A DNA stretch of 64,000 nt, taken from the NCBI GenBank assembly GCA_043824495.1, contig JBDRSV010000024.1:91056-155055 (forward strand), given 5' to 3'. Positions 2,967-36,609 of this stretch are shown in pieces (positions within the stretch are counted from its first letter, which is position 1; every line of letters starts with the position of its first letter). A model generated the notes under the pieces. That model was not told where the DNA came from, ran no database searches, and saw only the letters and a program-made list of their open reading frames with translations. The stretch is from Candidatus Aenigmatarchaeota archaeon (GTDB lineage: Archaea; Aenigmatarchaeota; Aenigmatarchaeia; QMZP01). The translations under genes were made by a program, and so were the position numbers.

Positions 2967-3010
2967 ACAGGTATTCAAGAAGAGTCAATTCCTTCTGCCT
3001 GTTTTTAATT
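2967..3010 (+). terminator. intrinsic terminator-like hairpin followed by T-run
   Basis: AAACAGG...CCTGTTTTTAATTT immediately after the lipoprotein stop. Confidence 0.4.
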
Positions 3011-3030
3011 TGTCTAATTAAAGGGATATA
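3008..3030 (-). repeat. junction motif copy 1 (AATTTGTCTAATTAAAGGGATATA; reverse-complement orientation)
   Basis: Matches four other copies at 17660, 20176, 36287 and 56967. Sits exactly at the GC-to-AT composition switch. Confidence 0.85.
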
Positions 3031-11070: not shown

Positions 11071-11234
11071 AGCCCCGTAGTGTAGTGGTCAAAGTTTGAC
11101 AACCTGTGTGCTCGCATGTAGTTGTCTACACGACTAGGCATATCGGGCCTTGGTTTTCGCAACTAAGGATCTGAGCGAGAAATCGCTGTGAAAGAGGATA
11201 CCCGGTGACTGCGGTTCGAATCCGCACGGGGCTA
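11071..11234 (+). tRNA. intron-containing tRNA, probably tRNA-Gln(UUG), with two putative introns (D-loop region and anticodon loop)
   Basis: 7-bp acceptor AGCCCCG/CGGGGCT with A1-U72 and discriminator A. D-loop AGUGG. T-arm TGCGG-TTCGAAT-CCGCA. Anticodon stem TCGGG/CCCGG with loop CCTTGG...A. Total 164 nt implies about 90 nt of intron. Confidence 0.55.
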
Positions 11235-11266
11235 TCATTTTTATTGTATACTTACAATTATTTCTT

Positions 11267-15171: not shown

Positions 15172-15315
15172 ACCCCCTTGACATCACCAAGGAATGAACA
15201 GGATATAAAGACCATACCGAACAAAAGTGAACAATCATGTTATATCCCTCTAATTAGACAATATAAAACAATCAGGTGCCGAGTGCACACCTAATTGTCC
15301 TTGCCAATCCTCTTC

Positions 15316-17041: not shown

Positions 17042-17249
17042 TCTCGTTAATTGACATTTCTGTCTTTCGTTGTCGTAGAGTATTGATTCCTAAATTACAG
17101 ATGATGACTTTACCTCGAACAAGAATCTTGTGCCAGGTGCTAAAAGTTGTCAGCGATGATAAATGTGGAACATGATGCATAGAATTTAACCTAAAATTTT
17201 ATAAACCTATACAAAACCTTTTTATACCTCTTAATTGACAATATATAGT

Positions 17250-17659: not shown

Positions 17660-17681
17660 TATATCCCTTTAAATGGACAAT
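17660..17681 (+). repeat. junction motif copy 2 (TATATCCCTTTAAATGGACAAT)
   Basis: Exact AT-to-GC switch. Followed by hairpin GGAGAGGTGCAG...CTGCACACTCTCC, the terminator of minus-strand gene 17755..19629. Confidence 0.85.
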
Positions 17682-17754
17682 GCAAAGGGAGAGGTGCAGT
17701 ATTCCACATCTGCACACTCTCCCACCACATCACCTTTTCAGGCTTTGCAGATTT

Positions 17755-19629
17755 TTACTTCAGAAGCGTCATCTTTTTGCTTTCCGTCAGGCTGGCCGTT
17801 TGCAACCGATAGAAGTACATACCGGACGCGACGGCCTTACCGTAGCGGTCGGTTCCGTCCCAGCTAACCTGATGTGTTCCTTCGGGCTGGGACCCGTTGA
17901 CGAGAGTGGCAACGTTGCGGCCGAGGATATCAAAGACCTCTAGCTTTACGTCTCCTCCCTGAGTCAACTGATAGGAAATCACGGTTCCGGCGTTGAAGGG
18001 GTTCGGGTAGTTCTGGTTCAAGCTGAATGATGTAGGAACGGCTCCTGTTGTCTTGTACGCGATGTTCAGCGTACCTAATGGAATCCACCCAGCCGGAACT
18101 GTCCGGCTGTTGTTGATCTCGTCAGCTATCGTTTTGGCCAACTCGTGATCGCCGAATGGATCGTCGATCAAGTTGTCGCAGTATGTTACCGCCTGTGACA
18201 CAGTCGCGCCGTCATCGCTAATCACAGCGGTTTGTGCCAGTTTGCCGCTAGCGACATTGAGTAGCAAAGCCATGAGTTGCTGTCTGGCTCGATCAATCAT
18301 GTCAACGCTGCCCTTGAGGTTCAGCAACGTCTTCGCGACTTCGAGCTTGTCTTCACAAAGATCCGACACGGGTGGATCGTACACGACGACCTCGTTCACT
18401 GCGTTCGAGTTGAAGTGGCCCGCGATGAGGTCGAGATAGCTACACAGAGTTGAAGCATCGATTTGCGCGCGGCCATTCCCACCAGTAGCGACGCCGACGT
18501 TGTGTTTCCAGAAGCCGATTGTTCGTTGTTCTCCAGCGTCTGACGGGCATCCCAATTCAAAGTCGATTTGGGCTGTGCCTTCACAATCGAGATCGACGGA
18601 CTGTTCGCTCGGAAATGCCGTATACCCGAGGGGGCCAACAAATGATACCATGTAGCTGGCCTCACCCGGGAGGTTCTCGAAATCGTAGTAACCGGCTTCA
18701 TCAGTCACAGCCGATTCTACAAGTACACCGGTGGCATCGAAGACATCAATCGTGATACCAAGAACAGAGCAGTCAGCACTCAGTGTGCCCTCAATTGCGG
18801 CGAAGCATTCTTCCTCTCCACCTCCGCATGCACACGTTCCATCTTCCACCTCAATGGCGGTGATGGTGTTGTCGTAGGCGTCCTTTGACCAGACGACGGT
18901 CAACGGCGCGAAGTTGATGACGTCGCATTCGAGATCCTCATCCCGACCACCGATCGTCGCGAAGTCACTGAGATACACGCCCGTTGTCTTGTCAATGCGA
19001 ACGATGTTGCCCAGACCATCGCGCCCGATGTAAAGGGTGTTCCCCGTCCCAACAATAACACCACTTATTCGATCCAGTGTATTGCCGGCCGCGTCGGTCG
19101 GATACAACGTTCCCAGATAGGCTCCCGAGCCCGCATCGAAGTGGTCAATGCCCGTTGATACATCATCGGAAACCCAGACACTGTTATCCGTCGCATCAAA
19201 GCCAATGCCGTCGATGAAACAGAAGCCCGGTGTTACCACAGAAAACTGGAAAGTGGCTACGCCGGTGGTGGGATCGATGAGATACACGTTCGCCGGACAT
19301 TCGTTGTCACTGCCTCCCCAGATCATGTTGCGCGTATTGTCCCATGCAATAGCGCCGATCGAAACTGGTGTGCCATCCGGTTTGAAAATGGAAACGAAGC
19401 CGAGATCGGTGCCGAATTTGTCTATCGAGTAGAGAGTTGGGTCGAAAGAGTTGGTGTAGAAAATCACACCATCACATCCAACTGCAACACCGATACCGAC
19501 ACCAGACGAGCTTGGAACAGGAACTGTGACGTTCGTGATGACATCACCGGGAGCTGCCATTGACGTAGCGGTGATAGCGGTGAAGAGGCAGAACACAACA
19601 AGCGCAGTGAAAGCTGTGAGACGCTTCAT
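17755..19629 (-). CDS. secreted protein with T9SS (Por) C-terminal sorting domain, CarboxypepD_reg-like domain and beta-propeller-like repeats
   Basis: Signal peptide MKRLTAFTALVVFCLFTAITATSMA. EAGYYDFENLPGEASYMVSFVGPLGY. C-terminal NYPNPFN...YFYRLQTASL sorting domain. GC-rich. Confidence 0.6.
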   Translation of the reverse strand: MKRLTAFTALVVFCLFTAITATSMAAPGDVITNVTVPVPSSSGVGIGVAVGCDGVIFYTNSFDPTLYSIDKFGTDLGFVSIFKPDGTPVSIGAIAWDNTRNMIWGGSDNECPANVYLIDPTTGVATFQFSVVTPGFCFIDGIGFDATDNSVWVSDDVSTGIDHFDAGSGAYLGTLYPTDAAGNTLDRISGVIVGTGNTLYIGRDGLGNIVRIDKTTGVYLSDFATIGGRDEDLECDVINFAPLTVVWSKDAYDNTITAIEVEDGTCACGGGEEECFAAIEGTLSADCSVLGITIDVFDATGVLVESAVTDEAGYYDFENLPGEASYMVSFVGPLGYTAFPSEQSVDLDCEGTAQIDFELGCPSDAGEQRTIGFWKHNVGVATGGNGRAQIDASTLCSYLDLIAGHFNSNAVNEVVVYDPPVSDLCEDKLEVAKTLLNLKGSVDMIDRARQQLMALLLNVASGKLAQTAVISDDGATVSQAVTYCDNLIDDPFGDHELAKTIADEINNSRTVPAGWIPLGTLNIAYKTTGAVPTSFSLNQNYPNPFNAGTVISYQLTQGGDVKLEVFDILGRNVATLVNGSQPEGTHQVSWDGTDRYGKAVASGMYFYRLQTASLTESKKMTLLK

Positions 19630-20175
19630 GGATTTTTATTCCTTAGGTTGTGAGGGAAATATGACCCTCCGGGTTTGTTTTTCGATTAGTTTCTGATTGT
19701 TTGTCGTTTACCACGTTTCCAAGTTAAGGTCCGCGAATCGCTATTTTCATTGGCATCCTCTCTTTGGGTTAATGTTGTCCGCACAAATTGCGGGATTAAA
19801 AGAAGGAAAGACACAAAAGATAGAGTATGTCTTATGTAGACTGAGAGTAAAATCATTCGAAGAATAAAGCTAATACTATTAAAACAAACATGCATGTTTG
19901 ATGTGTTTCTTTTCATGTTTTTTGTGTTAGCCAATGTACCGTTTCTATGGTTAATTGGATTGATTGAGTTGCAATCAATACAAATTTAAATGATGTTCGA
20001 ATGAGTAGCATGATTTAAATTGTATACAAAAATTGACGTTGATTCATCGTCGTTTTTTTGTGTTTTGGTATTTTTTTTGATTCTAGCTTGTCGCTTTTGT
20101 CAAGTCTTTAACTCAAGTATATAGCTTACAGGTATTTAAATGTTTTCTAACACATTTTTTTTAATTTTCTTTCTT

Positions 20176-20197
20176 TTATCCCTTTAAATAGACATAT
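20176..20197 (+). repeat. junction motif copy 3 (TTATCCCTTTAAATAGACATAT, slightly divergent)
   Basis: At the AT-to-GC switch that opens island C. Followed by inverted repeat AACGGGCG...CGCCCGTT. Confidence 0.75.
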
Positions 20198-20199
20198 AA

Positions 20200-23100
20200 A
20201 AAGGCAAACGGGCGAAGATTTGGAGCCAAACTCTTCTTGATGTCTCACCTCCGCCCGTTAAATGCCGTTGTCCGGCCTATCAATTTACCCGCCGGTTAGG
20301 TGAGCACATGTGCTCGTGTCCCAGAGGCGCATGTTTTCATGCCCTCCTTTGCCGGGTTCTTACGCGAACGTGCTGCTTGACCGAGATAATGTAGCTGCCA
20401 GATTCCCCACAACCTTGTTATTGGTGGAACCGCGACAGCGGTCGGTCCAGTCCGTATGCATCGTAGCCTCACTTGGTGAAGGACTGCGAATCAAGAGACG
20501 GGGATTCAGAAGAATCCCCGTCTCACGAGTTGACGGTTGGTACGAGATATATCAAAGGAAGTCTTTATGCCATTGGGTGCATTCCGAAACCTTTAGCCTC
20601 GTCCGTCTCCGAGGGATCCTATCAAAGGTTTCATAAAGGAAATTTCATGGACCTCGTTACGATAGGATCGGAGTGGCGTAAAGCCACGGCCAGAACCTCG
20701 AGGTCCCCCAGGATAAGATCACCGTTTGAATATGAGTCAGCGGTGAACGTAAGGGTGCTGGCGATTCTTCTTCGCATTCAAACCCTCCAGGGAACACTTC
20801 GTAATTTGTGTTGTCAGCGGCTGTTTACGAATCGGCGGTGATCGTTTCCACCACGGTACATGTCGGCGTGGTGACAAACGATGAAGAAGCGACTTCAAAA
20901 CGCGCGCGGCCATTGCTCGGCGGCGGCGAATGAGCCCAGGCATTGACGGCGGTCGCGGCGGTATTCATCCAGGAAGCGACCACTGGTGACCCGCGAAGGG
21001 TCGGTAATCGGTTCATAGAGCAAGCTCCATTTCTTCCGATAGGAAAATTCCAATCCACTTTACAAACTCTCGCCTAAACAGAAAGTATTGTCACATAACT
21101 TTCCGTCGCAAAAGAGAATGTGAAGAGGAAACAATTTCGTACACCTCGTCAAGAGATCGTCTCCATTTTCACCCTACATGGGCTAGGCGAGAGGATAGAC
21201 CAGTTGCTGATAGAGATGTAGAGGGAACCGTTTTCATCCGAAGATCTCTCCCGTCCCTCAGGGAGTAAGTTGCTCGTCCACCAGGTTCCCATACCAAGGG
21301 AGCTGGCAACTCTGCCATTCTCTCTATCCGACTCTCTGTTGTCATCGCCACTACGGCAACAACTCTTAGCCTATCCGGCGTAGGATTATGAGAGTGTAGA
21401 GCGAATTCCTCGTTCCATGTTTGTTCTGTATCGCTGCCTGTTATGATATCCAATCCTGAAAACGGGATTGGGTCAGCGGTATAAACAATACAGGAACCAT
21501 ATATGAGGTAGCAGAGTGTCATGATTCCCAGCATGACAACTCCTTACAAGGGCACATGGTTATATGGTAAATGCTCTCTCCGTCAACAAATCGTGCCCTC
21601 TAAGACATGTTTAGGAGAGAAAGGCGACAACTCATGAAGTGTTCTTCAGGTGGACCCGTCATCACTGTTATTGCGTTGACGGCCTTCTCCTTGACCCGGA
21701 CTTAGACGTGTGGCTTTCGGTGTTTTCGCGGCGCGTTTCTGCTGTTTTGGACTACGCTTCTTGTTGCTCGGAAGCCCGTCTCGGGCACCACCGTGACACG
21801 TCATGAAAGACCTCGTTTGTGAGGAGTTCAGTTCAAGCTTGTGCTGGAACTGTTTGGAACGAGGAATTGTTACTCTTTACGGCGAGCGATTGTGTGTCAT
21901 CGTAACTCCTTGACAATGGTTTCCACAAGCTCCAAAATAAAAAAGAGCTGTTGTTTTCAAATTCAGTTGGGAATCTCCTAGCCCGCCCCCAGAACTGACT
22001 AGAGGAGATCCCCAACTTTTGTACAGCGCACCCCGTGCATTGTTTTCAGGGTGGAGGGGCCCGGCGGTCAACTGAGCCCCTCACTGGACGAATCGGTCAC
22101 AGATAACATGTTACGCATTACCGACTCGAAATCTATGCCACGGCAGTAGATGGAAGTGGTCGCATCTACCGCCGGGCTTCACGACGTTGTGCATTTTGTC
22201 GCCTTCAGCCTTACACAACGCCGTTATTTCCCCACCCACAGGGAATTTAATATCGCGGGGCCTCACTCAGGAGACCCCGCTTCCGTTGGGTTTACTACCG
22301 AATTGTTCGGTAGCGTTCTTCCACGACAGACATACGCACATGCGCACGTCTTCATTTCTTTGAGGACCTACTCATCTCCGATTTGAGTAGGTCCTCGGCT
22401 CCCCACAACCCCCCGATCAGCACCGGGAATTTTTTTGAGGGGAAATCTGAGCAGATATCTCAGACTCCCCTCCCGTCAGGTCTACCGACCAGCACTTCCG
22501 GTTGGACGCCGGAAATTCTTTATTAGAAGGGGTTTCCCCTCTCCAAGAAACCCCTTCCTCTTCGGCGTAGCGCGTCTCACGCGCTTTAGTGCATCGATCC
22601 CCACCGATCAGGTAAAACCCTTGGATGGTTCTCTCCCCGAACCCCCACTGAAATATTTTGGAACCCCTCATAGATCCCCGTAATCTCCGAGAGGTTCCGA
22701 CAGCAGCACCATACAAATGGGACTACCGTGACAATCAAAAATACCGGAATCCACCGCGTCAGAAGAGGATTCCGGTATTCTACATCGCTGGTTGTGTTGA
22801 GAGCTTACCCCTTACTGGTCTTAACGAGTATGTTACGTCGGACTTCCTTTCACCAAATATACGGGTCACTACAGAATACCCGATCGATCCGCTTTGTTGT
22901 CTTAATCTCACCAGCGGATAGTGACGCGGTTACAGCCAGCGATTTCGCCTTTATACAACAGGCGTCTCCAAACCAAAATGGAAATTGGAGTTGTTGCTTC
23001 CACACTTCCGGATTTCCCCCTCCGGTAAACTCTAAGGTACTGATAGGTGACCGCTCGTGTTTCTTGTGTTCGCAATTGCCGATTGCATCAAGCTCTTCGT

Positions 23101-23800
23101 AGATCTAGATCTGGAAGTAATTAGCAAACGATCACAATAAACAGACAACTGGGAGAAGTCCATTTCTACCAGTACCTGGATTTTCTAACCCTCGGGAGGT
23201 GTGTACAAGCCTAAGCAGAGTTTGTCCTGTTGAATTGGCCCCGAGGGTAAGTGGCCTTCCGGAAGAGAATTGGTGAGGTCCTGTAACAGAACTCTATCTC
23301 ATTCCGGGGTAAAGCTCAAGGCACAGCCAGAAGGAGACGTATTACCTTGAGAAGTTGGTCTCCCGAGTGAAGAAATTCGAGATGTCCCATCGATGAAGGA
23401 CATCTCTTCTCCACTCGGGCTCATTCGTCAGCCTGGAAGGAGAAGTGCAAGAGTTTTCGCGCAATTACTCTCTCTCCTCCCGGGAAATTTATGACCTCCT
23501 GGTCCGAAACTTGTGCCGCGGTAAACCAGAAGGCGTAACTGCTAGGCTATGTGACGGCCACAGCAGTAGGGATCGAATCCAATACACGAAAGACAGCTAA
23601 GACTAACTCTGTCTCGTGTGGTTTACGAGTAAAATTCAGAAATCGATAGTCTTCGGCCTCTTCGAGGGAAACTGCTTAAGCGCTTAATTGCAGCGCGTTA
23701 TGTTTCCTGGTAAGTGACCTGTTCTCTAGGATGTACCGAAGGCTAACTTAGTTAGTCTCGGGAAATTCGCGTGTGATTGGTAGAAATGAAACATGAAATG
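20200..23800. other. GC-rich ORF-poor island C, dense in perfect hairpins; candidate structured ncRNA(s) or degraded foreign DNA
   Basis: No ORF over 125 aa in 3.6 kb, versus dense coding elsewhere. Many perfect 6-13 bp inverted repeats, e.g. 22363..22397, 22525..22556, 22741..22778, 23366..23430. Confidence 0.5.
21169..21534 (-). CDS. small hypothetical protein with N-terminal hydrophobic segment
   Basis: Perfect SD AAGGAG plus 5 nt before the ATG (rc of 21535-21546). MLGIMTLCYLIYGSCIVYTA is signal/TM-like. Confidence 0.4.
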   Translation of the reverse strand: MLGIMTLCYLIYGSCIVYTADPIPFSGLDIITGSDTEQTWNEEFALHSHNPTPDRLRVVAVVAMTTESRIERMAELPAPLVWEPGGRATYSLRDGRDLRMKTVPSTSLSATGLSSRLAHVG

Positions 23801-26515: not shown

Positions 26516-27342
26516 AATAATTACCTCGAGTGACCATTTGTCACTATCTGATAGTTAAAATATGTATAAAGGGTTTATAAAGCTTTCGGTTAGCTTGCAG
26601 TGTGCTGTTTTTGAGCGTAAAAATCGTGTACGAAAGACAATTTTCTTGGGTTTCCATGACTTTTGTGCCAACGAAAGACATATTCTGTCTTTAGTAAGAG
26701 AGTTAATAAAGATTTCTGTCTCGCGCCTTATAAAGGATCCGAATTGGATATTTTATATAGTAATTAATTACTATTGTAGAGATCTTTATTTACTTAAGTC
26801 TTTACATAAATAATTCTCAAATACTTTTTGTCTTTGCTAAAGTTTAATGCAGATTTTCCTCGAAACTTTTGTGGAAATTCTTGAAATCAAATGTCTTCTA
26901 GTTTTGCTAGAGCTTTTGAAGACATGGAAACTCTCATAAAACCCCAACCGAAAAGTATTTAAACCCTTTGACTATAATTTCACTATAGATTAGTGACAAC
27001 AAATTAAGAAATGTCTGAGTTATGTGTGGTGTCAAATCCTACATAACTATCTTTACAATCTACGCAACTTTGAATAAAAAGAATTTCGGGTTAAACTCGC
27101 AATTCTAAACTCAGAGAAATTGAGTGCACAGGAATTTAGGCGCGGCCTAAAATCCCCATAAGAAATCCAAAAAAATGACACGCTTTGTGTCAAAAAATGT
27201 GATTTGAGGGGGTTTGATTTCCTTAGCTCTGAGTATCTACTTTTCGAAAACCACGAAGACTCGCGTAACAATTCTAAGCAATAAATATAGTGAAATTCCA
27301 GACTTCTGTAGACTTTCGCTGTCTGACATAGAAATTAACAAG

Positions 27343-27354
27343 TTGACAATAAAC
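27343..27354 (+). promoter_or_regulatory. TTGACAATAAAC sigma70-like -35 element upstream of 27378 (copy 1 of the island D promoter cassette)
   Basis: Same TGACAAT(A/T)AAC as at 29368 and 30278. SD GGGAGGG before ATG 27378. Confidence 0.4.
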
Positions 27355-27377
27355 GGAAACTTCTGGGAGGGATTGTC

Positions 27378-27740
27378 ATGAGAAATATCATGAGCTGTGT
27401 TTTCCTGCTGCTCACATTATTCCTGGTGAGTTGTGCGAAAAGTGGTCCGGAGCTGGGGAGTGATATCCGGATCAGTGGAACAATCGTCGACATGAGCGAA
27501 GGAGGTAGTAGGGATTTCCTGATCCAGTCCGGAGGAAAACTCTACCATTTCGGTACTCGACTGCAATTTAAATGGAGTAAACTTCGTGCGGGACATTACG
27601 TCACCGTGGATGGGAAGTTTGGGGGACCGTGCGAGGAAGCCTCAATGTTCAGACGCTACATGTACGACGACGAAGGGAACTTCATCAAGTCCCTCGAGGT
27701 CTATGACATCATCCATGTTTCGAACGTGGAGAGGCAGTGA
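27378..27740 (+). CDS. lipoprotein (hypothetical)
   Basis: MRNIMSCVFLLLTLFLVSC has lipobox LVSC. GC-rich, with SD. Confidence 0.5.
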   Translation: MRNIMSCVFLLLTLFLVSCAKSGPELGSDIRISGTIVDMSEGGSRDFLIQSGGKLYHFGTRLQFKWSKLRAGHYVTVDGKFGGPCEEASMFRRYMYDDEGNFIKSLEVYDIIHVSNVERQ

Positions 27741-27869
27741 TCCCACTGAGTTCATCCAATTCATCGGGTGGACCCAGATGAGATTATTGTCTAAAGGCTA
27801 AATCAGCAGGCCTTGAATTGTTGGTAGGGATCATTGGAAGATTCCCAAAAACATGGCAAGGAGGGCAAC

Positions 27870-28022
27870 ATGTCGCAGGGAACCAAAAACACCAAAGACA
27901 CAGGAACAAGAGCGTTTCTGGTTATCGACGGAACTACAGGAGACCTCATTCCTGTGAAAGCATCGTCTGGACGAAAAGCTGAGCAAATCGCCGGCAGCGT
28001 AACCAGACAATCCCGCAAATAA
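27870..28022 (+). CDS. small hypothetical protein (50 aa)
   Basis: AAGGAGGG SD 7 nt before ATG 27870. Hairpin GAGTATC...GATACTC after the stop. Confidence 0.3.
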   Translation: MSQGTKNTKDTGTRAFLVIDGTTGDLIPVKASSGRKAEQIAGSVTRQSRK

Positions 28023-28159
28023 AATTACCCACTGTGAATTCCCCAGGAGTATCATCCGCCCGGAAGATACTCTGTTCTCCCCCATACTACCATAGGCCAC
28101 ACGGAGCTCATCAGGTTTTCACTTGGTGGGCTCCAGTGAGATCTTTGGTGGTTAACGTT

Positions 28160-28240
28160 CCATAACCGTTTCATTCACAACCTTTTGCCGACCTTGTCTG
28201 CATTGCAGCTCAAGGAAGTGTGTAAAGGAAGGAGAGTGTC
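28160..28240 (+). promoter_or_regulatory. conserved leader/promoter region copy A (CCATAACC...CCTTTTGCCGACCTTGTCTG...AAAGGAAGGAGA-ATG)
   Basis: About 75% identical to 32682..32757 upstream of gene 32758. Preceded by GAGCTCAT...GGTGGGCTC, similar to 31980-32030 and 32613-32665. Confidence 0.5.
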
Positions 28241-28942
28241 ATGTTATTGCATGTAACAGTAATAAGCCGCGGAGACAGAACAACGATCGATGTTCCCAGA
28301 ACAGAATTCAACTGGGATACCAATCAATGTCGCGTAGTTGAAGGTGCAGAGGAAGCTGAAAGAAATCTCGGGGTGGCGGAGAATCTCGAAATCCGTAAAC
28401 CCGCGGCTTACCAGGGACCCTATTTATACTGTATTGTAGAGGTGGGGTTCGAGGAAATTTGTTTTCCCCCGACTTTCCTCAAGTGGATCGAGAATGTTCC
28501 CGAGGATGAGAAAAGAGCCATCCTTATCGTTCCCACCAAAACCATCCGAAAGGCCGATGATAGTCACTATATGGGATCTATAGATCGTTATAGGTATTAT
28601 CCTCATGGTGAAGTCTTCCTGATTGGTCGCAGAATCATCGTGAGGAACATCTACCTATCACCTGATAACATCAAGATGGTGGTGGATAAAATCCTTGCCC
28701 GACTGAGTGACGGCCTGTTCCTCCGGTTGGCCTTTGAGTTTCTCCAGGCTACGCCGATCAGTGACAATCCTACGGTGACTGGAGAACATATCACCATGTT
28801 GGATAATCTCTTCACGGGGACGCGTTCCCTTCGGAGAGGAGATTCAACTCGTCGCGAACGGTTCAATCATGTTCGGGCCGTGATTGGACATATGGCCAAA
28901 CACGGGATAGTTCTGTCTGGCAAGATCGAACCCGTGAAGTAA
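28241..28942 (+). CDS. hypothetical protein
   Basis: 233 aa, GC-rich, strong SD AAGGAAGGAGAG. No family recognised. Confidence 0.5.
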   Translation: MLLHVTVISRGDRTTIDVPRTEFNWDTNQCRVVEGAEEAERNLGVAENLEIRKPAAYQGPYLYCIVEVGFEEICFPPTFLKWIENVPEDEKRAILIVPTKTIRKADDSHYMGSIDRYRYYPHGEVFLIGRRIIVRNIYLSPDNIKMVVDKILARLSDGLFLRLAFEFLQATPISDNPTVTGEHITMLDNLFTGTRSLRRGDSTRRERFNHVRAVIGHMAKHGIVLSGKIEPVK

Positions 28943-28995
28943 TCAACGGCTTGGAAACCAAGTCAAATCAACGACAATGAAAGTTGAGGTGTAAT

Positions 28996-29316
28996 ATGAA
29001 TAGGCGAATACAGAGTATGATTGTGATGACTGCGACTTTGATAGCTGTTGCAGTCTTTCTCCAAGTCTCACAGCTTCACGCGGCACATTTGATGGCAACC
29101 GCAATTGCAATTGCGGTTGTGGTGATGATCGTTGTTAACATGGGAAGAGTTCCCAACACTCGGCAGAAGTTTCGGAACTTCTCTGTCGGAGCCGTTTTCG
29201 GGAGCATCTTCCTGTGGGAGTTGTTCAAGGTTACGTTCTTGAATCACCCTGCGGCTCTTTGGAGTGTGGTTGTACTCGGAGCTGCGGCAGTCTCATTTCT
29301 GACGTTCCGCCGGTAG
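28996..29316 (+). CDS. small membrane protein
   Basis: Three hydrophobic helices. ATG 28996 preferred over the track start 28984. Confidence 0.4.
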   Translation: MNRRIQSMIVMTATLIAVAVFLQVSQLHAAHLMATAIAIAVVVMIVVNMGRVPNTRQKFRNFSVGAVFGSIFLWELFKVTFLNHPAALWSVVVLGAAAVSFLTFRR

Positions 29317-29330
29317 TACTGAAGTTCACC

Positions 29331-29380
29331 GGGGATCCCGATCAATCTGGTTGGGATCCCCTCAACCTGACAATAAACTG
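29331..29380 (+). terminator. hairpin GGGGATCC-N15-GGATCCCC followed by TTGACAAT -35 box (cassette copy 2)
   Basis: Perfect 8-bp stem right after stop 29316. The TGACAATAAAC repeat also occurs at 27343 and 30278. Confidence 0.5.
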
Positions 29381-29414
29381 TTGTTAAATGTTCCATTACA
29401 CCAAGGAGGGCGCA

Positions 29415-30233
29415 ATGCGTCACCAACGTTTCATCACCACAGTACTGGCACTCATGTTCTTGACTGTGCCGGCAATGTTCAGCAGTGCGGTTCTGGCCGA
29501 TCCGATTTCATCCGGAGACGGTCAAATGTATGTGGTCCAACAGGGAGATTGGTTGACGCGGCCGATCATCCCGACACTCTACTCGGATGTGTTGAAGCCA
29601 GGCGACTTGAAGAGTGCTCTCTGGATCGCTGACATCTTCGATACACTCAACATTAACATCACCCACCGCGACAAAATTCGGGCGTATGATACCATCATGG
29701 CGCCGTCATTCGCGGCGTTGAAGAAGTACAAACATCTCGCACCCGCCGACGTGGTCATCAACCTGTTCGCCACGTATGATATCGCGTCCATGGAACTTGT
29801 GGACGCCGAGTTTGTAAGAAAGCGCATCGAGGACTTTGAGGGTACTTACTGGTACAAAAATCGAGCCGCGTGGGCCCGAATTTTCGGAGTCGGTAATGGC
29901 ACGTATGTCTGCGGTGACACCGTGATGCCGTTCTCATGGTTCATGAGCTGCAATACGGACGGTAATACGGGAATGACTATCTCCATCTCCATGGACGAAG
30001 GAGATCTCACCGCAGTTCGCAAGGTTCCAGGTACACGTAACGGATTCTGGGGAGCCAGTCGTGACAATAAGTTCACATACGTGGGCTTCGGCAACGACTG
30101 GATCGATCGTTGCGACTGGAATGACGAGACCGAGAGCTGGGACATTCCACCAGTTCTGAATGAGATCGTCGGAACTCTCAACAACTTTCCATTCGTCCAG
30201 TATATGACCGTCGTCGCGTACGAACTGGAATAG
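29415..30233 (+). CDS. secreted hypothetical protein (paralog family with 30334..31659)
   Basis: Signal peptide TTVLALMFLTVPAMFSSAVLA. AGGAGGG SD. C-terminal FPFVQYMTVVAYELE resembles the paralog's FFTNMKVIMYTVK. Confidence 0.5.
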   Translation: MRHQRFITTVLALMFLTVPAMFSSAVLADPISSGDGQMYVVQQGDWLTRPIIPTLYSDVLKPGDLKSALWIADIFDTLNINITHRDKIRAYDTIMAPSFAALKKYKHLAPADVVINLFATYDIASMELVDAEFVRKRIEDFEGTYWYKNRAAWARIFGVGNGTYVCGDTVMPFSWFMSCNTDGNTGMTISISMDEGDLTAVRKVPGTRNGFWGASRDNKFTYVGFGNDWIDRCDWNDETESWDIPPVLNEIVGTLNNFPFVQYMTVVAYELE

Positions 30234-30241
30234 TTGTTACA

Positions 30242-30290
30242 GGGGATCCTGACCAATTCGGTTGGGATCCCTTCAACTTGACAATTAACG
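30242..30290 (+). terminator. hairpin GGGGATCC-N15-GGATCCC followed by TTGACAAT (cassette copy 3)
   Basis: About 80% identical to 29331..29380. Confidence 0.5.
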
Positions 30291-30333
30291 TAACATGTTA
30301 ACAATGAATACCAACAGAGAAGGAGAAAGTCAA

Positions 30334-31659
30334 ATGTGTAACATCATCATCCGTACCATCGTGGCACTGGCACTCATGGTTCTGATCGTGCCGGCCATCA
30401 CCAACATCGCAATTGCGGACGGAACGCCGTGTGGTCTCACCGTAGGTAATGGCAACGACATCGATCGCGACTTCGTTGCATTCCTCAACAAAGAAGGAAT
30501 CAGATGGTTAACAATCGAGGAATTCGTTGAGTGCTACTCCCAACTGATCGGTCCAGGTAGTACCATGTTGAGCACCACTCGGGGATATGGCTGGGGATAT
30601 ATTGACGTTCCTTTCAAGTTTGGCGATTCGGTCGCGTCTATAGTGAACATGGAGATCATGCCAGGCGTCCGGATCAATATGGCTTGGGATCAAGCGGTCA
30701 TCTTCTACAAATATGCGAATAATCATGGAATGCATATTCTGAAGAAGACGGAGAATGACCGTGAGGTTCCGGCCTGGAGCGGCTTGATTGATGAAGCTAC
30801 GGTGCGTCAACATGTCAACGGCTTCGAAGTGTCCGCGCAGATTCCGAGTGATGTTCTGGAATCGGATGTTGCGATTATCCGGATGCGAGATTTAAAGGAC
30901 GCCTACTTGGCCGAGAACACCGACGTTATCGAGTCTTACCTCATCGAGAAGTTTGACCTCGACGACGATTCCGAGCCGTATTCTGACAATCGGCCAAATA
31001 TATTTCATCGCAGTGGCGAAGTCTTACTGGACTCGGAGATGTTCTTCGTGTATGAAGGTCTGGAAATTCTCAATCTCATCATCAATGATCGGTGGATTGG
31101 TGTACGATTCCCCGGATCGACCTATATCCACTTCATCAACATCGGACCGAGAAAAGTCCACGACTTGAATGCCAACTTCGTCGAGACGAAAACTCCGAAC
31201 AACACCGGCGGTCAGATCAGTATCCCGCAGGATGTGATCGAAAAGATGACGTGGATCGATTCCGTCTATTCGGATAGGATGTCCCCGAATCCGATGTTAG
31301 GTTTCGGAAACGGTGAGTACCTGGCGAGCTCTGGGATCGTTTCGTTCGCGTGGGTTGCCTGGACCAACACCGATGGCAACCTCCAGTTCTATCTCAATGT
31401 TCTCCTTAACATTGATCATCAGGTGACGATCGAGACTGTGTCTCACTACGGTGGGCCTGATGTTTGGAGGGCGTGGAGTCCGAATCAGACCTGCACAGAG
31501 GTGGAGACTGGAAACGGCTGGTGTTATATTCACTGTTCCCAGTCGGAAAGTGGACCTCGAATCTGCGACTATAGACAAGCCTTGGACGATGCAGTCGCGG
31601 CGTTCAATGGCATCGATTTCTTCACGAACATGAAGGTGATCATGTACACGGTGAAGTAA
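30334..31659 (+). CDS. secreted hypothetical protein (paralog of 29415..30233)
   Basis: Signal peptide IVALALMVLIVPAITNIAIA. SD GAAGGAG. ATG 30334 preferred. Confidence 0.5.
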   Translation: MCNIIIRTIVALALMVLIVPAITNIAIADGTPCGLTVGNGNDIDRDFVAFLNKEGIRWLTIEEFVECYSQLIGPGSTMLSTTRGYGWGYIDVPFKFGDSVASIVNMEIMPGVRINMAWDQAVIFYKYANNHGMHILKKTENDREVPAWSGLIDEATVRQHVNGFEVSAQIPSDVLESDVAIIRMRDLKDAYLAENTDVIESYLIEKFDLDDDSEPYSDNRPNIFHRSGEVLLDSEMFFVYEGLEILNLIINDRWIGVRFPGSTYIHFINIGPRKVHDLNANFVETKTPNNTGGQISIPQDVIEKMTWIDSVYSDRMSPNPMLGFGNGEYLASSGIVSFAWVAWTNTDGNLQFYLNVLLNIDHQVTIETVSHYGGPDVWRAWSPNQTCTEVETGNGWCYIHCSQSESGPRICDYRQALDDAVAAFNGIDFFTNMKVIMYTVK

Positions 31660-31948
31660 AGCCGAACGCCACGAATTACTAATCCGCTCTTCTTCCCAAA
31701 GAAGTGTGGCTAGTGTGAAAGGAGTATGGGAAGGTTCCACAGTAGTAGCATCAACGGCAAAAAGTAAAAGACAAAAAAATGAAGGCCAAACCCGAGGAGG
31801 AACTCGAAGTGAAGACGAAACGAAGGTCATGCCAATATCCCATTTCGCCCATGATGGCGACTCATATTCTCATAGTCTGACCGGCCGCCGGCGACGCCAC
31901 GGGCCTCTTATATAGTTAGCGGGGCCCATCGCCAATGCAGTCAAAATC

Positions 31949-32030
31949 CCGGGTAGGCTTCAACCCCTACCCGGGGTTCCAAATGAGCTCATCTAGTTCA
32001 GATATTTTCTAGGTGGGCCCATTTGGAATT
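31949..32030 (+). promoter_or_regulatory. hairpin CCGGGTAGG...CCTACCCGG plus inverted repeat TTCCAAATGAGC-N28-GCCCATTTGGAA
   Basis: A second copy with the same architecture lies at 32580..32665. Confidence 0.45.
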
Positions 32031-32092
32031 GTAAATGATTGTTGACTGTTCAATGAGCGTTCCGAAAGGAACATTGCAAGGAGATTTTTATC

Positions 32093-32557
32093 ATGACACA
32101 GCAGATGACATCAGTACCAGATGGTTGGGGCGGAGCAGGTGGCGACAGTCTCGGCACAGATGCACTCGAGCTTCTGAAGAAAATGGGATTCGACAATGCA
32201 ATGGGACAAGCGTTGCTCGGCAGCTTTAATCCACAGGGTTTCGTGGATGCGCTTCTCACGTTCCGACCGTTCCCGGTTGGCGGAGTCTCTCCCGAAGCTC
32301 GGAACGAGAGCAGAGAAGCTCAGTGGATTTATCTCACATGGATCTTCACCAGTCGGCAGAGAGCCTCCTTTCCCGTCGAAGGGGTGAGTGGCCTTGCTGA
32401 CTTCGTGGATATTGTCCGGAAAGCACAGAGCGATGCGGACGCGAACGAACATGCAGTTCGAATCTTGTCCAGGTTTGGGTGTGTCGATCTCCTCGTTGGT
32501 GAAGGTCGGACCTTCTTGCACACGAAAGCCATCGATTTCGCTAATTCCCAAACGTAA
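32093..32557 (+). CDS. hypothetical protein
   Basis: 154 aa, SD AAGGAG, GC-rich. Confidence 0.45.
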   Translation: MTQQMTSVPDGWGGAGGDSLGTDALELLKKMGFDNAMGQALLGSFNPQGFVDALLTFRPFPVGGVSPEARNESREAQWIYLTWIFTSRQRASFPVEGVSGLADFVDIVRKAQSDADANEHAVRILSRFGCVDLLVGEGRTFLHTKAIDFANSQT

Positions 32558-32579
32558 GTCCGCGACATCACCAACCAAT

Positions 32580-32665
32580 CCCGGGAACAAGACAGTTCAA
32601 TCTGTTCCCGGGTTCCAAATGAGTTCATGTGGTTTGATTTCTTGACTAGGTGGGCTCATTTGGAA
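32580..32665 (+). promoter_or_regulatory. hairpin CCCGGGAACA...TGTTCCCGGG plus inverted repeat TTCCAAATGAGT-N29-GCTCATTTGGAA (copy 2)
   Basis: Immediately after stop 32557. Contains TTGACT. Similar to 31949..32030. Confidence 0.45.
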
Positions 32666-32681
32666 TTGAGTTGTAGTAGAA

Positions 32682-32757
32682 CCATAACCCATTCACGACC
32701 TTTTGTCGACCCTGTCTGATATCAGTTCAGGGAAGAATCTAAAGGAAGGAGAATTCA
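32682..32757 (+). promoter_or_regulatory. conserved leader/promoter region copy B
   Basis: CCATAACCCATTCACGACCTTTTGTCGACCCTGTCTG...AAAGGAAGGAGAATTCA-ATG matches 28160..28240. Confidence 0.5.
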
Positions 32758-34749
32758 ATGCATTCACTCCAAGAAGTAAAAGAACACATCAAGACAACGA
32801 TGTGCAAAGCGGTTCAAGTGAATCGCTGGATGATGTGGATCGCGCTCGTCGTCATATGTATTGTGGCGATTGAGTTGTTCGTTTGGTTGCCTTCACTGCC
32901 AGAAGAGGCGCAAGACGTCCTTTCCCCATTCATAGAAGGTGGAAACAGGAATGCAGGCACGTTATTACTCCACTTCTTCTGTTTCATGGGTGCATTGGTG
33001 TCTATCTTCTTCAAAATCTTCGGTCCGATCACAAGATCTTATGATAATACACTTTTCTGGGAACTCCATCTGGGTGGAACAAAAAGGATCGGATTCCGCC
33101 TGGGTGACTGGCCTACTGGTGTGTTCATTGAAGCGGCAGACGTTCTCAGTGATTTACCAGCGAATGTCAGGAAAAGAATTCCGTGCACCCAGTATGCTGT
33201 TTCTCGAATTAAAAGCGTAACGGAATTCGACGACAGCGGTAGAGCCATCGTCCCACGGGATGAGAGTGTGTCTTCTGTGAGATTCGCCACAGTGGATGAT
33301 GGTCGACCGGGAACGCTCGACTTGGATAGGGTGTTCTCCTGGGCGCATAAGTACATCCGAGGCTATTATATCTGCCTGGCCTTTACATGTCTGTTCCTGG
33401 CTTGGCCGGTGATAACCGGCTACTCGATCGCGAGCTTCATGCACGACCTCCCGGTCCAGATCCACGACATCGCTGTTGACCCATCTCAGAATTCGACGAA
33501 AGTAATCGTCAGTTCTGATCGCAATGTCCGGTATGACTCAAGAATCGAGGTTGCAGATGACTGTGTCTGCTCCCGATTCATTCTGAACATATACCCGGCA
33601 AAGTGTGATTTCCTGGAGGAGATCTTTGCCAGTGACTATGTAATGAGAGGGTATTATGGGGCTCGAACCAACACCGGGCAGCTCTCCGAAGCAACTGGAT
33701 GGAATGGTGTCAGGCAAATCAACATCAGACAAGTTGGTGACACCATCAAGATTGTACTCGGCCTGAAAGATATGGTTGAGTACGCAATGAGTCGCTCGTC
33801 AGAGCACGGCACAAAGGATCTGGTCGTTGGTCTGGACACGCCAGTCGAGTCCAAACAGACATCGGGCGAATATTGGACCGCGAACAAGTTCGCAGATCAG
33901 TACGAAGTTCCTGACAACAATGCCCGTCGCGAGTCATCGTGTGGTGAATGGAAGTCGTTCGTCAGATTTGTATCTGCGGATAGTAACAACGTATACTTCT
34001 CTGCCAGATACGGTGGAGTGTACAGAGTGGATATGAATGGATGGATTGACACGATCGTCCCAAACAACGAGGTTGATTACTACCACACGCCAGTGAGTAG
34101 CGGTAATAAACTCGCTGGCATCCATGATGGGAATGATCTCTGTATTGTGGATATGGATACCAGAAAGGTCAAGAACGTCACCCATGGACAAATATGGGAC
34201 GTCGATTGGGTCTCGGACACCGGACTCGTGTTCTGGAGAGATCTTGATGGTGTCTGTTACTACTCCCTCTCTGCGGACTCGTCTTGGTCTTTGAACAAAA
34301 AGGCCAAATTCCCATCTGTGTGTGGGGATAAGATATTCTACCTCACACACTTACGCACCCATCGGGATGAGTGGGATTCCACACTAATCTGGGAGATGAG
34401 CCTTGACGGGTCTTCCAGAACCGTAGCTAGGTTGAAGGGAGGCTACTCACACCTGAGTATGTCTTCGGACTGCTCAATTGCAGTTCTGAAAGAGCCGTAT
34501 AGTTCTGACCGCACGTGGGTCAATAGAATCAAAACATTCTCCTTCAACGACTGCATTATGACAACACTGACGGAGTGTGGTGAGTCTCCAAGGATCACTA
34601 CAGACAATCGAATTGTTTATGTCAAGTTGTATCCTGTGGAGGGGCGTGGGGATTTCAACTCGAACTCAGAAGTCCGGATCATGGATCTGGACGGCAGAAA
34701 CGACACCTTGATTGTCAACAGAGAGGAACTCCGGAAGTTTCCGATGTAA
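32758..34749 (+). CDS. large membrane-anchored protein with extracytoplasmic beta-rich domain (hypothetical)
   Basis: Two N-terminal TM helices, then about 560 aa rich in W/Y/D/G turns; possibly propeller-like. Confidence 0.5.
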   Translation: MHSLQEVKEHIKTTMCKAVQVNRWMMWIALVVICIVAIELFVWLPSLPEEAQDVLSPFIEGGNRNAGTLLLHFFCFMGALVSIFFKIFGPITRSYDNTLFWELHLGGTKRIGFRLGDWPTGVFIEAADVLSDLPANVRKRIPCTQYAVSRIKSVTEFDDSGRAIVPRDESVSSVRFATVDDGRPGTLDLDRVFSWAHKYIRGYYICLAFTCLFLAWPVITGYSIASFMHDLPVQIHDIAVDPSQNSTKVIVSSDRNVRYDSRIEVADDCVCSRFILNIYPAKCDFLEEIFASDYVMRGYYGARTNTGQLSEATGWNGVRQINIRQVGDTIKIVLGLKDMVEYAMSRSSEHGTKDLVVGLDTPVESKQTSGEYWTANKFADQYEVPDNNARRESSCGEWKSFVRFVSADSNNVYFSARYGGVYRVDMNGWIDTIVPNNEVDYYHTPVSSGNKLAGIHDGNDLCIVDMDTRKVKNVTHGQIWDVDWVSDTGLVFWRDLDGVCYYSLSADSSWSLNKKAKFPSVCGDKIFYLTHLRTHRDEWDSTLIWEMSLDGSSRTVARLKGGYSHLSMSSDCSIAVLKEPYSSDRTWVNRIKTFSFNDCIMTTLTECGESPRITTDNRIVYVKLYPVEGRGDFNSNSEVRIMDLDGRNDTLIVNREELRKFPM

Positions 34750-34830
34750 GCGTGTAGTTATCATTCACACCCCGCCTGGATTCAATTCCAGGCGGGGTTG
34801 ATCATGAAATAAAGAGAAGGGGAGTGTACC

Positions 34831-35835
34831 ATGATAAAAATGTTTGGTAAACTGCTCTGCGGAGTTGCCATGGTTGTAGGCGGGTTGATCGCAGTGCTAG
34901 CGACGATCACTTTCTTCGCAGTCATTGGGAACATGGTAATCGATACTTACAAAATTGGCATGCATTTCTCTCCGTTGTTACCGACAGCCTTCATCAGCCT
35001 TTGGGTCGCCGCCGTCATGCTTTGGATTACCACCCTCGGCGCGAAAGGCCTCGGATGGTCGGTATCATGCCATTTGAAATTCAACATCGGTTACGGTTCC
35101 ATGCTGCTGGGAATCGTCGGCGTAATTGTGATCCTGGGATACTACACATATCTCTTCACCTTTGCTGACATCCCAGGACAACTGGTTGTCCTCAGTATTG
35201 ACGGTATGGAGACGTTCAGTCGGGTGGAAGTTCGTCTCATGAAAATCATGGATTTGGTGCCTCTACTATTCGCATCCATTTGCACCGGATTCACCGGACT
35301 GGCTCTCTGGTGGGGACGAATACAATCAATCCGGTTTCCGTTCTCCCGTTGGTTCGGAATCGCTGTCGCGATGATTCTTGTTATTGTCATGGCAGTGCCT
35401 GTTCTTGGTCAGGCCGATTCCACAGGCTTCACTGAGGCCAAGACCCATCTTTGTGGGATGCAGATGAATTATGCTGAATATTTCGGTGAGTTGTTCGCGG
35501 CGCGTTTCGCATCCCGGGAACTTGATATCAATATCTTCGATGCCGATGAAGAGTGGATGTGGAGAATGGTTGATTCAACATTCTACCGAAGGGATACACT
35601 CTTTGCTGTCAGAGACGGGTTCTCGTCGGTATTTAATATGGCCGAAGAGAAGGCCGAGCTTGTGGCCGCGACTGATCTGGCGAGAATTGTCGGGAAAATC
35701 AGGGGAATCCCGGAAGGTGAACGCGTTCCTTTAAGGTATTGTTTCCGTGGGGGACAGTTCATCAAGAAAGATACAAACAGAGGTTACCATGCGGTTGTAG
35801 TGCAGATTCTTCCGCTGTCTGAGAATCTGGAGTGA
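34831..35835 (+). CDS. polytopic membrane protein with C-terminal soluble domain (hypothetical)
   Basis: About 6 TM helices in the first 200 aa. SD GGGGAG. Confidence 0.5.
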   Translation: MIKMFGKLLCGVAMVVGGLIAVLATITFFAVIGNMVIDTYKIGMHFSPLLPTAFISLWVAAVMLWITTLGAKGLGWSVSCHLKFNIGYGSMLLGIVGVIVILGYYTYLFTFADIPGQLVVLSIDGMETFSRVEVRLMKIMDLVPLLFASICTGFTGLALWWGRIQSIRFPFSRWFGIAVAMILVIVMAVPVLGQADSTGFTEAKTHLCGMQMNYAEYFGELFAARFASRELDINIFDADEEWMWRMVDSTFYRRDTLFAVRDGFSSVFNMAEEKAELVAATDLARIVGKIRGIPEGERVPLRYCFRGGQFIKKDTNRGYHAVVVQILPLSENLE

Positions 35836-35876
35836 AACCAACATTATCCTTTCAACATTTGATGGAGGACGGGTCA

Positions 35877-36222
35877 TGAAACTAGTCTTAAATCGTAGGC
35901 ATCTTATAGATCCCGCCAGTGTCATTGGGCCACGCGTGAACTGGTTGTTCTCCTGAATGGCCAAGAGGTTCAGGTGCGTCCTATCGACCAGACGATAATT
36001 CTGATCGGACGCGATCCGGAATGTGACGTAATACTCGATAATCGCGCCGTCGACTTCTTCCATGCTCACATTGATTTCGGCGAGAATTTTGTAGTAATTG
36101 ACAACGTGTCACTCAACGGCACGTTTGTCAACGGAGAAAAGGTCGAGAAAGCGGTTCTCCGTCCTGGTGATGTGATCACAATAGCCAGGTATGAGATTCA
36201 CATCCGGTCCCTCCGGAAGTAG
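35877..36222 (+). pseudogene. FHA-domain protein, apparently frameshifted (or non-ATG start at GTG 35974)
   Basis: FHA core LVVLLNGQEVQVRPIDQTIILIGRDPECDVIL...NGTFVNGEKV lies in a frame with no ATG. A GGAGG SD plus ATG 35877 lie in another frame that terminates after 26 codons. Confidence 0.4.
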
Positions 36223-36286
36223 ACGACGCGATGGTAGTCTTGTTCCAATTCCGTACAGGTGTTTACAAAATCTGTGCGGGATTTGT

Positions 36287-36308
36287 ATTGTCTAATTAAA
36301 GGGATATA
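36287..36308 (-). repeat. junction motif copy 4 (ATTGTCTAATTAAAGGGATATA; reverse-complement orientation)
   Basis: GC-to-AT switch at the end of island D, after the FHA gene. Confidence 0.85.
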
Positions 36309-36390
36309 AGAGTTAAGGCTTTGCACAAAAACTCTGTTTTACACAAAAACTGTGCTTAGCCTAAAAAATTCAAGAAAAAGGAGGTGAAGC

Positions 36391-36609
36391 GTGAAAAAGG
36401 TTAAAAGTTGGAAATCTAAAGATAATAATATGATGATTACTCCAAGATTAGTGTTAATGTTCATTTTTGGACTTATTGCTATTTATGGTCTTTTTGCTGC
36501 TCTTAGTCCAGAAAGGTATATAATTCCTCTAGTTTCAGGTGAATTTGCACAAATTATTGGGTTTATTATATTTATCATAGCAGGTTATTTTTTTGTTAGG
36601 TTTAGATAA
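36391..36609 (+). CDS. small membrane protein
   Basis: GTG start with AAGGAGGTG SD. Two TM helices. Confidence 0.4.
   Translation: MKKVKSWKSKDNNMMITPRLVLMFIFGLIAIYGLFAALSPERYIIPLVSGEFAQIIGFIIFIIAGYFFVRFR

Follow-up and report, generated by a model that had tools for sequence, protein, structure and literature searches.

Reused hairpin and leader modules in a GC-rich island of an Aenigmatarchaeota genome as candidate cis-acting mRNA elements

Repetitive extragenic palindromic (REP) elements and bacterial interspersed mosaic elements (BIMEs) are short imperfect palindromes that lie after stop codons or between cistrons, in one orientation with respect to transcription; at the RNA level, REPs act as 3′ stabilizers and as regulators of relative cistron expression. 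The intercistronic RNase III hairpins of phage T7 form a family of similar stem-loops between the co-directional genes of a foreign element, and the upstream mRNA retains its hairpin, which then protects the 3′ end. Leaders that sequester the Shine-Dalgarno (SD) sequence, including the ROSE and fourU thermometers and the translational operators of ribosomal-protein and phage genes, hold the ribosome-binding site in the 3′ strand of a stem, and one leader can stand on different genes. Here we describe elements with these features in a 64-kb segment of an archaeal chromosome (Candidatus Aenigmatarchaeota archaeon, assembly GCA_043824495.1, contig JBDRSV010000024.1, positions 91,056 to 155,055 of the forward strand; herein the window, numbered from its first nucleotide [nt]). 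The elements sit in an island at 27.3-36.2 kb (9 kb, 49% GC, within a 33% GC Aenigmatarchaeota genome) and comprise a stem-loop (H), a GC hairpin (T) and a leader (L1). A sequence-only reading of this DNA had proposed a conserved upstream region of ∼150 nt shared by the genes starting at 28241 and 32758, with a 12-bp inverted-repeat operator for a dimeric regulator also before gene 32093, or else a cis-regulatory leader RNA. The sequence features that it quoted are all present where it placed them. We read the repeats, with a confidence that is about evenly balanced, as cis-acting mRNA elements (an intercistronic or 3′ stem-loop and a leader that sequesters the ribosome-binding site) rather than as a DNA operator.

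H is a stem-loop with the core GAGYTCAT / GTGGRCYC. It occurs four times, always on the gene-sense (+) strand, with no other copy in the window. Three copies carry the motif GAGYTCAT...GGTGGGCYC (28104-28133, 31985-32020, and 32621-32657); the earlier count of three hairpins rises to four with the addition of H1 (27746-27777; CTGAGTTCATCC / GGGTGGACCCAG), which lies 5 nt past the stop codon of open reading frame (ORF) 27378-27740 and 92 nt upstream of ATG 27870. The H1 stem counts 12 pairs, of which two are U·G and one is an A·C mismatch, and closes an 8-nt loop. H2 (28100-28138) has the core GGAGCTCATCAGGT-TTTC-ACTTGGTGGGCTCC with a CAC/GTG extension across a bulged A, and is found 102 nt before ATG 28241. 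H3 (31977-32028; TTCCAAATGAGCTCATCTAG / CTAGGTGGGCCCATTTGGAA) forms a 20-pair stem with a 12-nt loop 64 nt before ATG 32093, and H4 (32613-32665), with outer arms as in H3, forms a stem of 17 + 5 pairs 92 nt before ATG 32758. An unfiltered search of both window strands with a covariance model of the four copies returned exactly four matches, all on the + strand, at 47-53 bits (H1, 47.8; H2, 52.6; H3, 48.4; H4, 46.9); the next-best match is the antisense strand of H3 at 22.7 bits. Within the window, the copies are thus confined to 27.7-32.7 kb, where they follow only 4 of the ∼10 island genes; the model found nothing in the other GC-rich islands or the host DNA of the window, and none in nine related loci from other genomes.

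The four stems were set in a common structural register of 15 aligned pairs. Over these pairs 90% of the cells are paired, falling to 45% once the partner is slid by one column. Five of the 15 pairs are changed on both sides with pairing kept: core position 4, for instance, is U-A, C-G or U·G, and a pair immediately inward of the core is C-G, A-U or U-A. Two U·G pairs do not vary among the four copies. Double changes of this kind would not be selected by a protein that reads fixed half-sites. H1 and H2 diverge from H3 and H4 everywhere outside the core and the pairing, which points to selection on structure, not recent copying. Folding of three + strand regions gives -52.1, -40.1, and -50.7 kcal/mol (z = -3.1 to -4.0), compared with -37.2, -28.6, and -34.5 kcal/mol for the same regions on the - strand; the + strand therefore folds 11-16 kcal/mol better, an advantage due to G·U pairs. 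The spacing between the conserved half-sites also varies (20, 22, 28, and 29 bp). Together, the one-strand pairing, the folding asymmetry and the variable spacing argue for a hairpin of the sense strand, most simply in mRNA, and not for a palindrome read by a dimer.

The second module, L1, precedes genes 28241 and 32758. In the first copy (28160-28240, + strand), CCATAACC...CATTCACAACCTTTTGCCGACCTTGTCTGCATTGCAGCTCAAGGAAGTGTGTAAAGGAAGGAGA is followed by 5 nt and ATG and is predicted to fold as a nested stem with the SD in its 3′ strand; the second copy occupies 32682-32757 (+ strand) before ATG 32758. Alignment of 28160-28235 with 32682-32752 spans 76 columns, is ∼84% identical, contains two indels (4 nt and 1 nt) and stops 5 nt upstream of each ATG. 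The 27-nt core, TTCACRACCTTTTGYCGACCYTGTCTG, has exactly two occurrences against zero expected (100 shuffles). A two-copy RNAalifold consensus contains 21 shared pairs. Two of them carry changes on both sides (C-G to U-A in one, U-A to C-G in the other), a third is altered on a single side, and all remain paired. The consensus folds at -17.85 kcal/mol, compared with -6.0 ± 2.5 in column shuffles (0/500 as low) and -13.25 for the reverse strand. The outer helices are formed by CAUUC and CCUUU with AAAGG and GARU, the 3′ strand of the predicted stem is the SD tract AAAGGAAGGAGA, and at the top of the stem is a GC-rich hairpin (CCYUG-CUG...CAG-CARGG). Between the copies, the central palindrome differs symmetrically (CTGCATTGCAG vs. 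CTGATATCAG), which favors a hairpin over a fixed protein half-site. In the predicted fold, the ribosome-binding site is thus paired in a stable stem that is kept in both copies, as expected of a leader that sequesters the SD. The suggestion of a cis-regulatory leader RNA therefore holds for this 76-nt leader, in two copies only. Other readings of L1 were discarded: an upstream ORF or leader peptide is ruled out, as L1 contains no ATG and the two copies are put out of frame with each other by the 1-nt indel, and scanning and inspection gave no consistent hexamers for sigma-70, extracytoplasmic function (ECF) or sigma-54 promoters.

The third module, T, is a GC hairpin clamped by CCCGGG immediately upstream of H3 and H4 (both + strand). 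T-a (31948-31975; CCCGGGTAGG-CTTCAACC-CCTACCCGGG) ends one base before H3 and T-b (32580-32612; CCCGGGAACA-(13 nt)-TGTTCCCGGG) abuts H4. The CCCGGG/CCCGGG clamp is common to both, and the inner four pairs are all swapped (TAGG:CCTA vs. AACA:TGTT) with the hairpin kept, an exchange that, judged from these two copies, would preserve structure. GC hairpins thus stand where the sequence-only reading saw strong terminators; a scan of the + strand for intrinsic terminators, however, called none of H1-H4, T-a or T-b, and neither T-a nor T-b is followed by a T-run. After each H, T makes up 4-5 of 10 bases, noncontiguously. U-tracts are the signal for termination by archaeal RNA polymerase. A host-type TATA element (TATTTAAACCCTTT...; 26956-26986, + strand), directed into the island ∼390 nt before its first gene, is a putative promoter and the likely source of sense transcription through the island. 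Since the hairpins lack U-tracts and a host-type promoter faces the island, long sense transcripts containing H, T and L1 are plausible. The same element lies within one arm of a 54-nt inverted repeat (26538-26591 / 26946-26999; 74% complementary) with TATA-like boxes TTTATAAACCC / TATTTAAACCC; its arms resemble a divergent pair of host promoters, one serving the operon of a 182-residue protein and HerA and the other facing the island.

The modules assort independently, and the picture of one conserved region serving three genes proved too simple, with the hairpin found four times and the leader twice. The similarity of H and of L1 within the supposed ∼150-nt region is real; the region itself is a mosaic, in which the 24 or 16 nt that separate H from L1, depending on the copy, are not conserved. 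T and H before gene 32758 are shared with the region before gene 32093 (32577-32668 vs. 31945-32031), which lacks L1, and the homology of these two regions ends sharply 3 nt past the hairpin; L1 before gene 32758 is shared with the region before gene 28241. Genes 28241, 32093, and 32758 are mutually unrelated, as had been stated, and no coding sequence was duplicated with the modules. We propose that the modules spread among unrelated genes by duplication or recombination of noncoding segments only.

We infer that these regions are transcribed and that the hairpins act in the transcript. H, often doubled with T, would be a stem-loop in 3′ untranslated or intercistronic RNA that marks or protects transcript ends, either by blocking 3′ exonucleases or by offering the conserved core, including its two U·G pairs, for recognition by an endonuclease or an RNA-binding protein; such action would uncouple the levels of neighboring cistrons. 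H1 is most likely carried on the transcript of the upstream gene, because it begins 5 nt after the stop codon and has only coding sequence upstream. As a 5′ leader, L1 would enclose the SD in a long-range stem and keep genes 28241 and 32758 poorly translated as long as no factor, temperature shift or upstream ribosome opens it.

Searches for relatives gave the following results. Rfam 15 has no match in the window at gathering scores, and none up to E = 5 overlaps H, T or L1. Exact-pattern scans for leader and hairpin found nothing in viral contigs, the hairpin arm has no match in a collection of genome contigs, and megablast of the island against phages returned no match. HerA-adjacent loci of other Aenigmatarchaeota (53-70% protein identity, different GC content) contain no island or motif. 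A looser hairpin pattern gave 31 viral matches, all lacking the stem extension and appearing to be coding sequence or chance; a metagenome scan with the L1 core gave two, both in high-GC coding sequence and attributed to chance.

Several observations weigh against the reading as mRNA elements. L1 exists in two copies only, and at least two compensatory pairs arise in ∼9% of column shuffles, so that covariation alone is not significant for this module. The four H copies share ancestry; a shuffle control can overstate support for related sequences, and the invariant U·G pairs may be inherited, not selected. A hairpin of single-stranded DNA on the same strand would give an identical appearance. 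No promoter was placed with confidence for gene 28241 or 32758, and the viral, genome and metagenome collections and the HerA-adjacent loci offered no relatives in which to test conservation. All conclusions rest on copies in one island of one genome.

In an alternative that we consider unlikely, H, alone or with T, would be a selfish or recombination-prone palindrome, similar to REPs or miniature inverted-repeat transposable elements (MITEs) or serving as a single-stranded DNA hairpin for a recombinase or HUH enzyme. Its spread would have taken place within the island or the donor genome, with any effect on mRNA incidental. The mosaic (H with or without T, and with either leader), the sharp end of homology 3 nt past the hairpin, and the placement of the copies between genes, after coding sequences and in a single orientation all suit this alternative, and the strand-specific pairs, as G·T, would suit a folded DNA strand equally. 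However, there are four copies only, within 5 kb, and none in the other islands or host DNA of the window; H1 and H2 have diverged from H3 and H4 save for core and pairing; and there is no visible target-site duplication. Neither a transposase, a REP-associated tyrosine transposase (RAYT) nor an integrase lies near the island, the lone DDE transposase of the window being 8 kb beyond it.

Also improbable, in our estimation clearly so, is that the repeats are relics of duplicated noncoding DNA, left by promoter or leader swaps and illegitimate recombination, with no conserved function beyond the ribosome-binding site. The similar pairs are 84-90% identical in short blocks with sharp ends, all sequences come from a single genome, and a neighboring repeat (29328 / 30239; see below) does accompany paralogous genes. 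Relics would not explain why substitutions preserve pairing (both-side changes: five in H, four in T, two in L1) or why the folds are far more stable than shuffled sequence; moreover, the coding sequences adjoining H, T and L1 are unrelated.

The proposal that H is a DNA operator, or the upstream site of a dimeric transcription factor that co-regulates the downstream genes, drew on the inverted 12-nt arms TTCCAAATGAGY / GYYCATTTGGAA. These arms do exist, perfect or nearly so, in H3 (31977-88/32017-28, gap of 28 nt) and H4 (32613-24/32654-65, gap of 29 nt); each pair comes directly after a GC hairpin that resembles a transcript end, and the distance of H to the start codons (64-102 nt) would suit an upstream site. 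In both copies, however, the arms are the outer part of a continuous 20-22-pair stem with a 9-12-nt loop: complementarity runs unbroken through the supposed spacer, with covarying pairs, and the outer arms (TTCCAAAT) are present in two of four copies only, being missing from H1 and H2. Half-site spacing is not fixed, folding is strand-asymmetric, and the nearby helix-turn-helix (HTH) regulator that an operator might call for was not found, as Pfam detects no DNA-binding domain in any island protein and none is apparent in the structural model of the 154-residue product of gene 32093. We hold an operator to be very unlikely on all of these grounds.

More speculative still, and in our judgment a long shot, is that the hairpins are working parts of an undescribed gene-cassette system of DPANN archaea, in which H and T form the junctions, single-strand recombination shuffles leaders and genes, and the host exerts control by convergent antisense transcription. 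Antisense transcription brings in a 27-nt host TATA-like motif, TATATCCCTTTAAATAGACAATATAAA (degenerate form TATATCCCTTTAA(A/T)T(A/G)GACAATATAAA), which has seven occurrences in the window: 15241-15267, 17660-17686, 20175-20201, 56967-56993, and 17221-17247 on the + strand, and ∼36282-36308 and ∼3003-3030 on the - strand. Six of the seven lie exactly at the 3′ edge of an island, abutting the last hairpin and pointing inward, antisense to the island ORFs; on the gene strand, TTTATATTGTC then comes after the hairpin. The remaining copy (17221) lies ahead of a host gene. A similar motif stands ∼70 nt before a gene on another Aenigmatarchaeota contig (L012:7233) and behind a gene in L006:953-975. 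A convergent antisense promoter, a terminator and an insertion target are all candidate roles.

By definition, attC sites have complementary R″ (RYYYAAC) and R′ (GTTRRRY) cores ending an imperfect hairpin of 55-141 nt. We give next to no credence to an integrase-less integron-like cassette array with the hairpins as attC-type recombination sites: archaeal attC arrays have been described, Aenigmatarchaeota included and most without an integrase (PMC9668308), and the locus resembles them in its co-directional orphan genes parted by one-strand imperfect inverted repeats and in a base composition unlike that of the host, yet no complementary RYYYAAC...GTTRRRY pair 40-160 nt apart exists on either strand of 27300-36400, the only intergenic GTTRRRY is at 29383, no tyrosine recombinase (Phage_integrase) was found among 60 ORFs scanned in the window, H stands 64-102 nt from the next ATG, a long distance for attC, and several genes are parted by unrelated hairpins.

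The setting of the reading as mRNA elements is a host chromosome segment with a background GC content of ∼33%, encoding ribosomal proteins S17, L24, S4e, and S7, RNA polymerase subunit D, and arginyl-tRNA synthetase (ArgRS). Segments of 45-58% GC lie at ∼1-3, 15-17, 17.7-23.8, 27.3-36.2, and 57-59 kb; the window has six GC-rich islands, which encode mainly orphan proteins, secreted or in the membrane; one island lacks ORFs. The island with the modules was recovered independently, with the same sequence, in a Logan assembly (run SRR26275509). It has ten co-directional ORFs on the + strand, each with a strong AGGAG-type ribosome-binding site, and genes 29415 and 30334 are its sole pair of paralogs. 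With the exception of an FHA ORF (35974-36222), the island proteins have no usable match in Pfam, PHROGs or PADLOC. The first ORF, 27378-27740 (+ strand), lies upstream of H1; between H1 and H2 is an ORF for a basic protein of 50 residues (27870-28022, + strand) with no family match. A homolog search of 5.8 billion clustered proteins returned only self for the products of genes 28241 (28241-28942, + strand; 233 residues), 32093 (32093-32557, + strand; 154 residues), and 32758 (32758-34749, + strand; 663 residues with an N-terminal membrane segment). Structure prediction gave an all-α model of the 154-residue protein (predicted local distance difference test [pLDDT] score, 65), which matches no fold in the Protein Data Bank (PDB), and an unusable one of the 233-residue protein (pLDDT, 37). 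A secreted island protein of 441 residues has 12 distant relatives by full HMMER search; the motifs were not found on the short contigs of the two of these that were inspected. The FHA-domain ORF at the island end (+ strand) has a GTG start, and FHA-like residues seem to extend upstream in frame; within 35868-36222 (+ strand), a short ATG ORF begins at 35868 in a different frame. The FHA ORF may have a miscalled start or be a frameshifted pseudogene.

Other intergenic elements of the island differ from H, T and L1. Between the stop codon of ORF 27870-28022 and H2, an unrelated hairpin, GAGTATC-(12 nt)-GATACTC (28047-28072, + strand), can be read from the sequence. The leader of gene 32093 (32060-32092, + strand) is a small hairpin, GTTCC-GAAA-GGAAC, followed by ATTGCAAGGAGA, and is not homologous to L1. 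A candidate second type of leader, TTCCCAAAAACATGGCAAGGAG (27842-27869, + strand), has weak similarity to 32060-32083 (local alignment score, 27; unrelated pairs, 19-21). A different repeated module, comprising a hairpin (GGGGATCCC...GGGATCCCC) and then CAACCTGACAATAAAC, is found at 29328-29382 (+ strand) with a second copy at 30239-30293; the two (hairpin, then CAAYTTGACAATWAAC) are 84% identical over 51 nt and precede the paralogous secreted-protein genes 29415 and 30334. Its motif recurs without the hairpin at 27339-27358, before the first island gene, and a similar element, CAATTAACG, was seen near 17085 (- strand), upstream of the first gene of the 15-17 kb island.

The remaining window holds further features of note. 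A segment of ∼3.6 kb (∼20200-23800; 46-52% GC) begins right after one copy of the 27-nt motif and has many GC hairpins, no ORF of more than 125 residues on either strand, and no Rfam match at thresholds up to E = 1; it may represent a decayed island or a long noncoding RNA. At ∼11071-11236 (+ strand), a tRNA-like gene has a 5′ part (AGCCCCGTAGTGTAGTGGTCAA...) and a 3′ part (GCGGTTCGAATCCGCACGGGGCTA) that match acceptor, D and T arms, with ∼90 extra nt between them. Neither ARAGORN nor Rfam detected this gene, probably a tRNA interrupted by at least one large intron. The myo-inositol-1-phosphate synthase gene (47035-49560, - strand) is split by an intein with a LAGLIDADG homing endonuclease domain. 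Two genes of other GC-rich islands suggest acquisition from bacteria: one for an M32 carboxypeptidase (868-2388, + strand; 58% GC segment), and one for a 624-residue protein (17755-19629, - strand) with SdrD_B and FlgD_ig domains and, at the C terminus, a sorting domain like those of bacterial type IX secretion.

The modules are genuine but local, with a function that we infer; they are a local curiosity and not a new kind of system. If the reading as mRNA elements is correct, a horizontally acquired island in a reduced DPANN archaeon brings its own posttranscriptional signals and reuses them on unrelated genes. Modules of this sort are easily mistaken for operators, and the locus offers an example of how an RNA hairpin can be told from a protein-binding palindrome, namely by strand-asymmetric G·U pairs, variable half-site spacing and covariation. 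A small practical gain is two candidate RNA motifs that are not in Rfam. The pattern of islands with an inward host promoter motif may have a wider bearing on how these archaea take up and restrain foreign genes.

Comparison with described systems defines the limits of each likeness. A bulge-helix-bulge (BHB) has two 3-nt bulges separated by a 4-bp helix, whereas nothing more than single mismatches or one bulged base interrupts the continuous stems of H, and C/D-box, kink-turn (K-turn) and BHB readings of the flanks and stems were inconsistent by eye. Phage "morons" are similar in that genes without mutual relationship, atypical in composition, each have a hairpin and an upstream signal of their own on either side, and in that these signals are reused between units; here, unlike in that system, there are no phage genes, and promoter and terminator activities are putative. 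REPs number tens to hundreds of copies genome-wide, have a GTAG-type head and are linked to a RAYT, whereas H, within the window, has four copies in one island of an archaeon, and no such enzyme is encoded there (no Y1_Tnp match among the window ORFs scanned). The RNase III sites of T7 are marked by a distinctive internal loop and are cut by a known nuclease; H, in contrast, is a nearly continuous helix and would be a candidate site. Compared with SD-sequestering leaders, L1 has two copies and lacks a U-rich anti-SD quartet, a known ligand or protein, and an Rfam family. Neither H nor L1 belongs to a curated family; by analogy of function, H would resemble REP elements and the RNase III hairpins of T7, and L1 would resemble the leaders and thermometers that sequester the SD.

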